From the sequence record PV763136.1: 64,000 nucleotides of DNA, one strand, 5' to 3'. A program made the translations under genes and the position numbers. Numbering within the stretch: the first letter of the stretch is position 1; each line of letters begins with the position of its first letter. The notes beneath the pieces were generated by a model. That model saw nothing but the letters and a program-made list of their open reading frames with translations. It searched no databases and was not told the origin of the DNA. This stretch comes from Escherichia phage vB_EcoM_YN3. Shown piece after piece: positions 23,080 through 23,330 of the stretch.

Positions 23080-23330
23080 TCAGTTTCCACACATAAACTT
23101 TATCCGAACTCGCGCGGGAGGCTCTCAACCGACTCCTTCCGGCGCTGGCAAGCTTTCGTCGGTGGTCCACATTAGTGCTCGGCCTTTGGCCTGCGCTATC
23201 GCTTCGCTCCCACACATGTTAACAGTCCTGCATGTATGCACTTCTGTTATTGTGTGCACTATAGAGGCCCGGCATCTCGCCCCTCGTAGGCGAGTGCCAA
23301 TGAAGGGCCGACACTACCTATAGAAAGTAA
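23080..23330. other. GC-rich ORF-free island B, candidate structured RNA
   Basis: about 250 bp GC-rich with multiple GC stems, within a 618 bp gap between minus-strand genes. Confidence 0.25.

Follow-up and report, generated by a model that had tools for sequence, protein, structure and literature searches.

A folded non-coding unit beside an origin-like repeat region, conserved in Vequintaviruses and found again in satellite-like Escherichia coli plasmids

The stretch of 64,000 nucleotides (nt) from Escherichia phage vB_EcoM_YN3 that was analysed here (sequence record PV763136.1), referred to as the window, is a Vequintavirus genome sequence (an rV5-like E. coli myophage) and contains a GC-rich island in a gap between two genes. 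Comparison with related phages and plasmids indicates that this island is the core of a conserved non-coding unit of about 340 nt, running from 23314 to 22972 on the minus strand. By the same comparison, its fold consists of a 5' hairpin (H1), a variable hairpin (H2) and a three-way junction, whose helices appear to be kept by compensatory changes while the junction and loop bases stay fixed, which is the generic hallmark of a structured RNA. The element, being conserved, folded and non-coding, is most likely an RNA. It is probably a signal common to the phages and to a family of small plasmids, as it adjoins an origin-like repeat region and recurs in plasmids that look like satellites. The reading we favour, tentatively, is that the unit is a structured RNA which acts in cis within an origin-like module and has been copied by satellites. 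It belongs to no Rfam family and represents a new family of structured elements, occurring in a lytic phage genus and in satellite-like plasmids.

A preliminary description, made from the sequence of the window, had pointed to a strongly GC-rich stretch of roughly 250 nt at 23080-23330, and this is the most GC-rich 250 nt of the 64 kb. The GC content is 0.58 at 23100-23299 and about 0.40-0.45 in the surroundings. When 250-nt sliding segments were taken across the window (n=2,550), the mean GC content was 0.430 (standard deviation 0.034), with the maximum of 0.552 at 23051-23325, and values of at least 0.54 were reached solely in the segments starting at 23051 and 23076. The 618-bp gap without an open reading frame (ORF) of 60 aa or more was likewise found as described, at 22951-23568, flanked by ORFs 22372-22950 and 23569-23919 of the minus strand; the longest ORFs that it contains have 56, 53, 44, 34, 32 and 31 aa. 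However, the island cannot be called a neighbour of the transfer RNA (tRNA) cluster, as had been stated, since it lies about 2 kb away from the tRNAs (20132-21071), with 4-5 ORFs and several sigma-70-like promoters in between.

The gap matched 118 phage records at 80-97% identity, and its GC-rich part at 89-100%. In the IMG/VR phage contig L006, the most divergent phage, the island is 84% identical and the 192-aa protein encoded downstream of it 82% identical. Comparison with L006 and comparison with plasmid L071 place the 5' boundary of the unit (GTGTCGGCCC) at the identical point. On the other side, the plasmid homology extends past the GC island through conserved blocks (AAGGYCCCUAAA, CCACAGCUAnAUAAACUAUAC, GCAAUCGCA and UUGAUAGAnAAnCUCGUUA), and the length of about 340 nt was assigned because this homology continues to a hairpin and U-run at 23003-22975. 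The hairpin pairs 23003-22998 with 22985-22980 (pair probability 0.64), is followed by the U-run at 22979-22975, and is separated by 22 nt from the ribosome-binding site with which the 192-aa gene begins; in the 3' part of the unit in phage Pr121LW, a U-to-C change converts a G·U pair to G-C. The coordinates of the unit, its parts and its neighbours are given in Table 1.

Table 1. Positions in the window of the conserved unit, its parts and the neighbouring features (strand. where none is given)
Feature	Position	Strand	Description
Whole unit	22972..23314	-	Defined by phage/plasmid homology; the GC island is its 5' two-thirds
Hairpin H1	23266..23309	-	GGCCC/GGGCC, GGCA/UGCC, CUCGCC/GGCGAG; conserved loop UAYGAGG
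Variable hairpin H2	23211..23256	-	CACACA..AACAG / CUGUU..UGUGUG; pair probability 0.96-1.00
Three-way-junction domain	23111..23216	-	H3 with hairpins A and B
Closing helix H3	23216-23207 with 23120-23111	-	UGUGUGGGAG/CUCCCGCGCG
Hairpin A	23191-23181	-	
Hairpin B	23163-23158 with 23133-23128	-	Invariant 24-nt loop, 23157-23134
3' part	22972..23110	-	Less GC-rich; local alignments to plasmids L101, L099 and L102
Downstream gene	22372..22950	-	192-aa hypothetical protein, phrog_12226
AT-rich tract	23334..23450	.	GC about 0.30, about 115 bp; long GATC-containing palindromes; nearly invariant in the genus
Two tandem palindromic sites	23455-23471 and 23477-23493	.	TGTCCGT-nnn-ACGGACA, 22-bp spacing, read from the sequence
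HTH (helix-turn-helix) gene	23569..23919	-	116-aa winged-HTH protein; rV5 ORF79; in relatives "replication initiation protein" or transcriptional regulator
Metallophosphoesterase	23967-24623	-	
AAA_33/polynucleotide-kinase-like protein	24529-24993	-	
T4 Rnl1-type RNA ligase 1	25037-25972	+	Divergent gene upstream

The short complementary GC segments noticed earlier do pair in the thermodynamic ensemble of a 358-nt sense RNA, in which H1, H2 and hairpin A have pair probabilities of 0.96-1.00 (0.97-1.00 for H1). H2 is the variable part: in rV5, Pr121LW and A147, an 18-nt deletion shortens it to CACACAUG/CAUGUGUG, the plasmids carry different hairpins in its position, and its 3' strand overlaps the 5' strand of H3. 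The conserved junction strands of the three-way junction are AAUGUGGA and GAGAG. This domain is single-copy, as each phage genome and each plasmid gives exactly one match to the descriptor and to the covariance model; in one plasmid type (L099) there are two diverged copies of it.

A comparative alignment for covarying stems, which had been suggested as a check, revealed helices that are compensatorily rewritten across the relatives. For H1, all 15 pairs are paired in the four versions compared, two of them having changed on both sides from G-C to U-A in plasmid L071, and the pairing falls to 32-48% once the partners are slid. In the covariance-model alignment, 94.9% of the cells are paired, versus 38-50% with the partners slid by 1-3 columns, and in helix B three of the six pairs are altered on both sides with 100% pairing. 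Because MAFFT alignments put divergent stems out of register, and the covariance model matches the type-2/3/4 copies weakly (E 0.015-3) and forces their helix B into insert states, the divergent versions were paired explicitly. In the resulting table of nine sequence versions, for which the helix strands were assigned by hand, the three junction helices are fully complementary in all nine. Helix B occurs in five unrelated versions (ACCGAC/GUCGGU; GCUGCC/GGCAGC, also GGCAGU; GUCCGGAU/AUCCGGAC; GCCGGA/UCCGGC; GCCGUCC/GGACGGU), which are fully complementary, some rows showing a G·U variant. Five unrelated versions were likewise seen for hairpin A, and H3 is co-ordinately altered to UGGUGG/CCGCCA in the second L099 copy. 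Despite the rewritten stem, the 24-nt loop of B is identical between the phage and the type-1 plasmids, whereas the type-2 plasmids have a different loop. The idea that the (UG)n/(CG)n tracts covary in length was also considered and was rejected as inconsistent among the plasmids.

The fold can be assigned to one strand by its wobble pairs. H3 contains three conserved U·G pairs, and single-sided changes yield G·U in helix B of phage Aya, L006, L097 and the second L099 copy, and in H3 of L089 and L091; just one single-sided change gives A·C. The fold is accordingly assigned to the gene-sense strand. On that strand, the minimum-free-energy (MFE) structure calculated with RNA parameters contains the closing helix in four of the five lineages, whereas no lineage has it on the antisense strand; with DNA parameters it is present in one of five. 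In addition, cUUCGg and cGUAAg loops are present in the plasmid modules. Given the RNA-parameter folds, the G·U pairs and these loops, an RNA is somewhat more probable than a DNA element.

A protein-coding origin of the conservation was addressed through the 56-aa ORF78 that is annotated in the gap in rV5, and which corresponds to 23215-23045 on the minus strand of the window. The preliminary description had held that a short coding frame in homologous phages, together with the absence of an accumulating transcript, would speak against an RNA; ORF78 is indeed open in the Vequintavirus copies, but it carries no coding signature. Among the phage copies, 19 distinct nonsynonymous and 7 synonymous substitutions were counted in this frame, distributed 9/10/7 over the codon positions, and the start is a GTG without a ribosome-binding site. 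The frame is prematurely stopped in L006 and riddled with stops in the plasmid homologues. ORF78 was therefore rejected as a gene, there being no purifying selection in frame, no third-position bias and no intact copy in L006 or the plasmids.

Known RNA families were also searched for. At gathering thresholds, the Rfam 15 scan of the window returned tRNAs only, no family being matched in the gap, and a scan of 22900-23600 at E<=10 gave sub-threshold matches only, the best being rli43 with 25 bits against a threshold of 100 and mainly within the AT-rich tract. For the plasmid and L006 loci, the Rfam scan gave nothing beyond tRNAs. A group I intron, a transfer-messenger RNA and a tRNA-like RNA were unsupported in the Rfam and tRNA scans, and 6S, RNase P, GOLLD, ROOL and plasmid antisense RNAs were also unmatched. 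The search for a group I intron core, which had been proposed, was negative in a further respect, as two complete ORFs, each with its own start and stop and each conserved separately, border the gap, leaving no exons to join.

Among complete E. coli genomes, no chromosomal match to the element was found and only small plasmids were matched, so capture of host DNA was rejected. The plasmids form a family of about 13-15 kb, detected in 7 of 5,426 complete genomes and in draft contigs (L073, which is NZ_CP020521.1, a whole plasmid of 13,689 bp, together with L072, L074-L076, L089-L091 and L097-L102). They encode a major head protein, a tape measure of 706-720 aa, a Dit-like tail protein and a tail-completion protein, the last three of which are 38-57% identical to genes of the window or of phage Aya (window counterparts at 3799-4356, 5630-6583 and 10831-11172). 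No terminase or portal was recognised among the plasmid ORFs with assignments, several ORFs having none. Judged by this gene content, the plasmids are probably satellites or mini-phages related to the rV5-like phages. The unit is the only non-coding nucleotide similarity between the plasmid and a whole Vequintavirus genome above the level of weak matches, the other non-coding match being of 32 bp with an E value of 8.7e-4.

Beyond these plasmids and the Vequintaviruses, pattern scans of IMG/VR gave one divergent phage and chance matches only, a metagenome scan gave four further vequintavirus contigs and about 30 chance matches, and a scan of GTDB genomes gave chance matches only, in GC-rich bacteria. 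No phage counterpart was found for the type-2 plasmid region, and one 25-nt plasmid non-coding pattern had no exact match in IMG/VR. In the literature searched, no paper describing the plasmid family was found, nor anything relevant on Vequintavirus transcriptomes, satellites or origins. Several records met in these searches deserve a comment. NZ_CP043822.1 (39.6 kb) has three copies of the match, which suggests that it is a plasmid trimer. Eighteen "Campylobacter phage" records (MG0656xx) are Vequintavirus by sequence, MG065644.1 being marked UNVERIFIED, and the PLSDB "plasmid" CP057073.1 (E. coli, 137.6 kb) matches the element as phages do and is as large as a Vequintavirus genome. The two diverged three-way-junction copies of the most divergent plasmid type are separated by an alternating CG/TG tract and, after it, about 230 nt consisting of A/T only (L099:2470-2710).

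The surroundings of the unit are conserved in layout. On the sense strand of the phage, the order is the HTH gene, two to four palindromic sites, the AT-rich tract and the unit. The 116-aa HTH protein matches Pfam HTH_36 (2.3e-5) and DUF6945 (3.8e-6) and PHROGs 12838 (5e-80), 8102 (8e-6) and 428 (7e-4), each of which is named "replication initiation protein"; outside the protein's own PHROG the similarity to initiators is weak. The L006 protein matches phrog_8102 at 4e-6, a 303-aa plasmid protein matches phrog_428/391 at 3-6e-4, and the plasmid proteins of about 300 aa have weak HTH_36 matches. The palindromic sites, of which there are two in the window, four in rV5, Pr121LW and Aya, and two to four across the relatives, are presumed to be the binding sites of the HTH protein, and the AT-rich tract is a candidate unwinding or promoter region. 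In L006, the HTH protein and the palindromic repeats are both swapped for another pair. Tandem repeats and then an AT-rich tract nevertheless precede the unit in L006 and in all of the plasmids, always in the same orientation, even though the repeats differ (at least four types among the plasmids, with 3-7 repeats each) and repeat type and core type assort independently. Tandem repeats beside an AT-rich tract, as expected of an origin, are thus found in the phages, L006 and the plasmids. PVP-SE1 and a Mydovirus also have the HTH homologue, palindromic repeats and GATC-rich AT tracts.

For transcription, a sigma-70-like promoter was found before the HTH gene (23983-23954, minus strand), and between it and the 192-aa gene there is no other promoter-like site and no terminator called by the scan. 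The sole terminator candidate is the hairpin with a 16-nt loop and the U-run, which was identified manually and not by the scan. The unit would most simply be transcribed as an intercistronic spacer, early in infection, because an early-type promoter precedes the HTH gene without an intervening promoter or called terminator. The unit is surrounded by minus-strand genes; further downstream come small ORFs, another GC-rich gap and the tRNA cluster. A link of the unit to the 192-aa gene was rejected, since a 51%-identical homologue occurs in the phage-like contig L035 without the element and the plasmids have no homologue.

In the favoured reading, the host RNA polymerase would transcribe the unit from the early promoter ahead of the HTH gene. 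The origin-like module would consist of the small HTH_36 "initiator", the tandem palindromic sites and the AT/GATC-rich tract, and the unit would be its structured-RNA arm acting in cis. The invariant loop and the junction bases could be read by a conserved host or phage replication or priming factor; alternatively, the RNA could seed an R-loop or a primer beside the AT-rich tract. By keeping the unit beside their own, different repeats and initiators, the plasmids would make use of the same factor. The comparisons show that the unit is non-coding, conserved and folded in a strand-specific manner, that it is syntenic with the repeats and that it has plasmid homologues. Transcription of the unit, the origin role of the module, the action of the unit in cis and the satellite status of the plasmids are what we infer here, cis action because linkage and orientation are conserved next to unrelated repeat sets. 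A bolder version, which we regard as doubtful, is that the unit is a previously undescribed three-way-junction RNA that links a family of extrachromosomal satellites, carried as plasmids, to the replication, or another process, of their strictly lytic rV5-like helper. Equally doubtful is the arrangement which that version would entail, with helper and satellite sharing one cis-acting RNA while each has its own initiator and repeats.

Several points weigh against the unit being a structured RNA of an origin-like module. The covariation comes from about 5-6 independent lineages only, with the covariance-model alignment fitted to the model and the nine-version table assigned by hand. The folding energy of the phage version is modest when compared with shuffled sequences (z = -2.0 for the minus and -2.9 for the plus strand), and the z-scores fail to separate the strands. 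In the ensemble of the full-length phage RNA, H3 has a probability of about 0 and helix B of 0.12, because H2 (CACACA/UGUGUG) competes with H3, and the three-way-junction fold lies 6.8 kcal/mol above the MFE. This conflict between H2 and H3 could be a model error or a real alternative conformation. The origin assignment is based on weak hidden Markov model matches (E ~1e-4 to 1e-6) and on the repeat architecture, and the palindromic repeats would also fit plain operator/repressor sites. There is no GC island at the HTH/repeat modules of PVP-SE1 and Mydovirus, so the unit is not a general requirement of such a module. Finally, the promoter scan gave nothing at the 5' boundary of the unit, and the strong sigma-70 promoters of the plasmids are downstream of it, not upstream.

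The same evidence has to be weighed for other explanations. A free, trans-acting stable or regulatory RNA, cut from the early transcript or made from its own unrecognised promoter, is a possibility to which we attach limited credence. With its conserved loop and junction bases it would bind and titrate a protein of the host or the phage, or base-pair with a target RNA, and the plasmid copies would mimic it or compete with it. The covariation, the G·U pairs and the RNA-parameter folds apply equally to such an RNA, which the hairpin and U-run at 23003-22975 could terminate as a discrete molecule; hairpin modules lying between recurring UGUGUGG motifs, in variable number and with two copies in L099, resemble sponge-type RNAs, and similar motifs stand in a plasmid leader downstream of a consensus promoter. 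On the other hand, trans action leaves unexplained why position and orientation are fixed beside unrelated repeat sets, and no sigma-70-like promoter at the 5' edge and no scan-called terminator in the gap were found. The stable RNA that was originally proposed for this island therefore stands in part: a conserved, non-coding fold on the gene-sense strand that is kept through compensatory changes is there, while the scans gave no promoter or terminator for a separate transcript. The fold could also act as single-stranded DNA (ssDNA), with the displaced sense strand folding after the AT-rich tract has opened to give a single-strand initiation or primosome site for DnaG, PriA or a phage primase. 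In keeping with this, both the phage and the plasmids have strand-specific hairpins 100-500 bp from tandem sites and an AT-rich tract, and the layout recalls the R1 G-site, pAMbeta1 ssiA and RSF1010 ssiA/ssiB. However, the single lineage of five that forms the closing helix with DNA parameters, the three G·T wobbles that would weaken a DNA helix of 8-10 bp, and the UUCG and GNRA tetraloops, which are typical of RNA, make it rather unlikely. As DNA, the versions of the window, L006 and L071 fold no better than shuffled sequences (z +0.24, -0.54 and +0.60), although the type-2 versions do (z -2.3 and -2.8).

That the unit is instead a cis leader of the downstream operon, acting in read-through (antitermination of the put/nut kind, or attenuation at 22979-22975), processing or stability, is unlikely. 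It does lie between co-oriented genes with the hairpin and U-run shortly before a ribosome-binding site, the mutual exclusion of H2 and H3 would suit a switch, and the leader of the plasmid capsid operon has modules of UGUGUGG/AUGUGGA plus hairpin, one with a U-rich tail. Yet there is no fixed downstream gene, the L035 homologue of the 192-aa protein does without the unit, and the promoters of the plasmid genes sit between the unit and the genes. Pairing of a CCUCC in the unit with the Shine-Dalgarno sequence of the 192-aa gene was rejected, as the variants do not covary. A packaging recognition site common to helper and satellite would account for the unit being the only non-coding similarity above weak-match level, and for plasmids with no annotated terminase; but compensatory stems and G·U pairs imply a single-stranded fold and not a duplex protein site, the type-2 plasmids have a different loop, and short pac motifs would elude BLAST, which leaves this explanation very improbable. 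We give hardly any credence to a small protein gene or a chance GC-rich spacer. In favour of the former, ORF78 is open in all Vequintavirus copies and annotated in rV5, against which stand its substitution pattern, its start, the truncation in L006 and the stops in the plasmids; chance is excluded by the conservation in 118 phages and the compensatory changes.

When compared with known systems, the unit is most like origin-proximal priming elements or primer transcripts, and is a demonstrable member of neither. The R1 G-site, pAMbeta1 ssiA (downstream of the repE origin) and RSF1010 ssiA/ssiB are, like the unit, strand-specific hairpins a few hundred bp from initiator repeats and an AT tract, and they are modular and exchangeable between replicons. 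However, these elements are ssDNA of about 40-140 nt, whereas the unit has about 340 nt with a three-way junction closed by a U·G-rich helix, which fits RNA better. ColE1 RNA II and the R-loop primers of T4 oriF/oriG share with the proposed unit a structured or GC-rich transcript of the host polymerase by an initiation site, based on RNA and acting in cis; ColE1 differs in that it requires neither initiator nor repeats. An RNase H site, a promoter or a hybrid-forming tract was not identified in the unit, nor was there sequence similarity to these primers.

Among phage RNAs, species 1 and 2 (RNAs C and D) of T4 are, like the unit, non-coding RNAs in an early region that also has tRNAs. These T4 stable RNAs had been offered as a precedent, which misfits because the island is not inside the tRNA cluster: the T4 RNAs lie within the cluster and are processed with the tRNAs, while the unit (22972-23314) is 2 kb away behind ORFs and promoter-like sites and has no tRNA-like fold. 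GOLLD and ROOL are conserved, ornate multi-helix RNAs of phages and prophages, often in tRNA-rich regions, but are two to three times larger, and their Rfam models are unmatched here. We know of no link of GOLLD or ROOL to origin-like repeats or of their sharing with satellites. HK022 put and lambda nut are cis-acting hairpin RNAs of early transcripts, located, like the unit, between an early promoter and a long operon; put differs in having two hairpins in about 70 nt, and in the plasmids the promoters are downstream of the unit. A likeness of logic only can be seen in begomovirus DNA satellites, which according to one paper share with their helper essentially only the origin stem-loop (PMC12193555); these belong to ssDNA plant viruses and have a nonanucleotide site for nicking by Rep (PMC12193555).

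Vequintaviruses are widely used as O157 and therapy phages, and in the literature searched no description of their replication origin or of their non-coding RNAs was found. An unannotated element that is supported by covariation and is core to the genus can therefore offer a handle on the start of replication or the control of early expression, and a concrete one, because specific helices and the invariant 24-nt loop can be mutated. Its occurrence in plasmids points to a possible plasmid-type satellite system of lytic myophages. If such a system exists, it would have consequences for phage therapy, where interference and gene transfer come into play, as well as for research on mobile elements, and if the three-way-junction RNA does link satellite and helper, it would be a new RNA class together with a new satellite-helper system in E. 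coli. If the unit is merely an mRNA spacer with stabilising hairpins, the finding would be modest.

Some further observations were made around the unit. In other Vequintavirinae genera, the HTH homologue stands at a divergent intergenic region with palindromic repeats of its own and GATC-rich AT tracts, where a GC-rich island is missing; this was seen in PVP-SE1 (L095:2639-2982) and in Klebsiella phage VLCpiM5b (L096:2528-2803). A set of RNA-repair-like genes adjoins the HTH gene at 23967-25972. TGTGG motifs were considered as DnaA boxes and rejected, as they retain no more than the CCACA core. An excess was noted for the heptamer TGTGTGG, with 26 occurrences in the window against about 6 expected and 17 in the 13.7-kb plasmid L073 against about 1.5 expected, and it recurs before hairpin modules, including those of the plasmid capsid-operon leader downstream of a consensus promoter (L073:2560-2590).

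On the way to the tRNA cluster, a second GC-rich (0.545), ORF-poor stretch, island A, was seen at 21560-21800 on the minus strand among small ORFs, with a strong sigma-70-like promoter (21563-21535) at its end. Neither the island described here nor the plasmids are similar to it, and Rfam gave no match at the gathering threshold. In the cluster itself, ARAGORN reported a 99-nt tRNA-like gene at 20377-20475 on the minus strand with a four-base anticodon (atcc), which is annotated as "tRNA-OTHER" in phage nomine. An Rfam tRNA at 20782-20866 on the minus strand, annotated as Tyr in nomine, was overlooked by ARAGORN.

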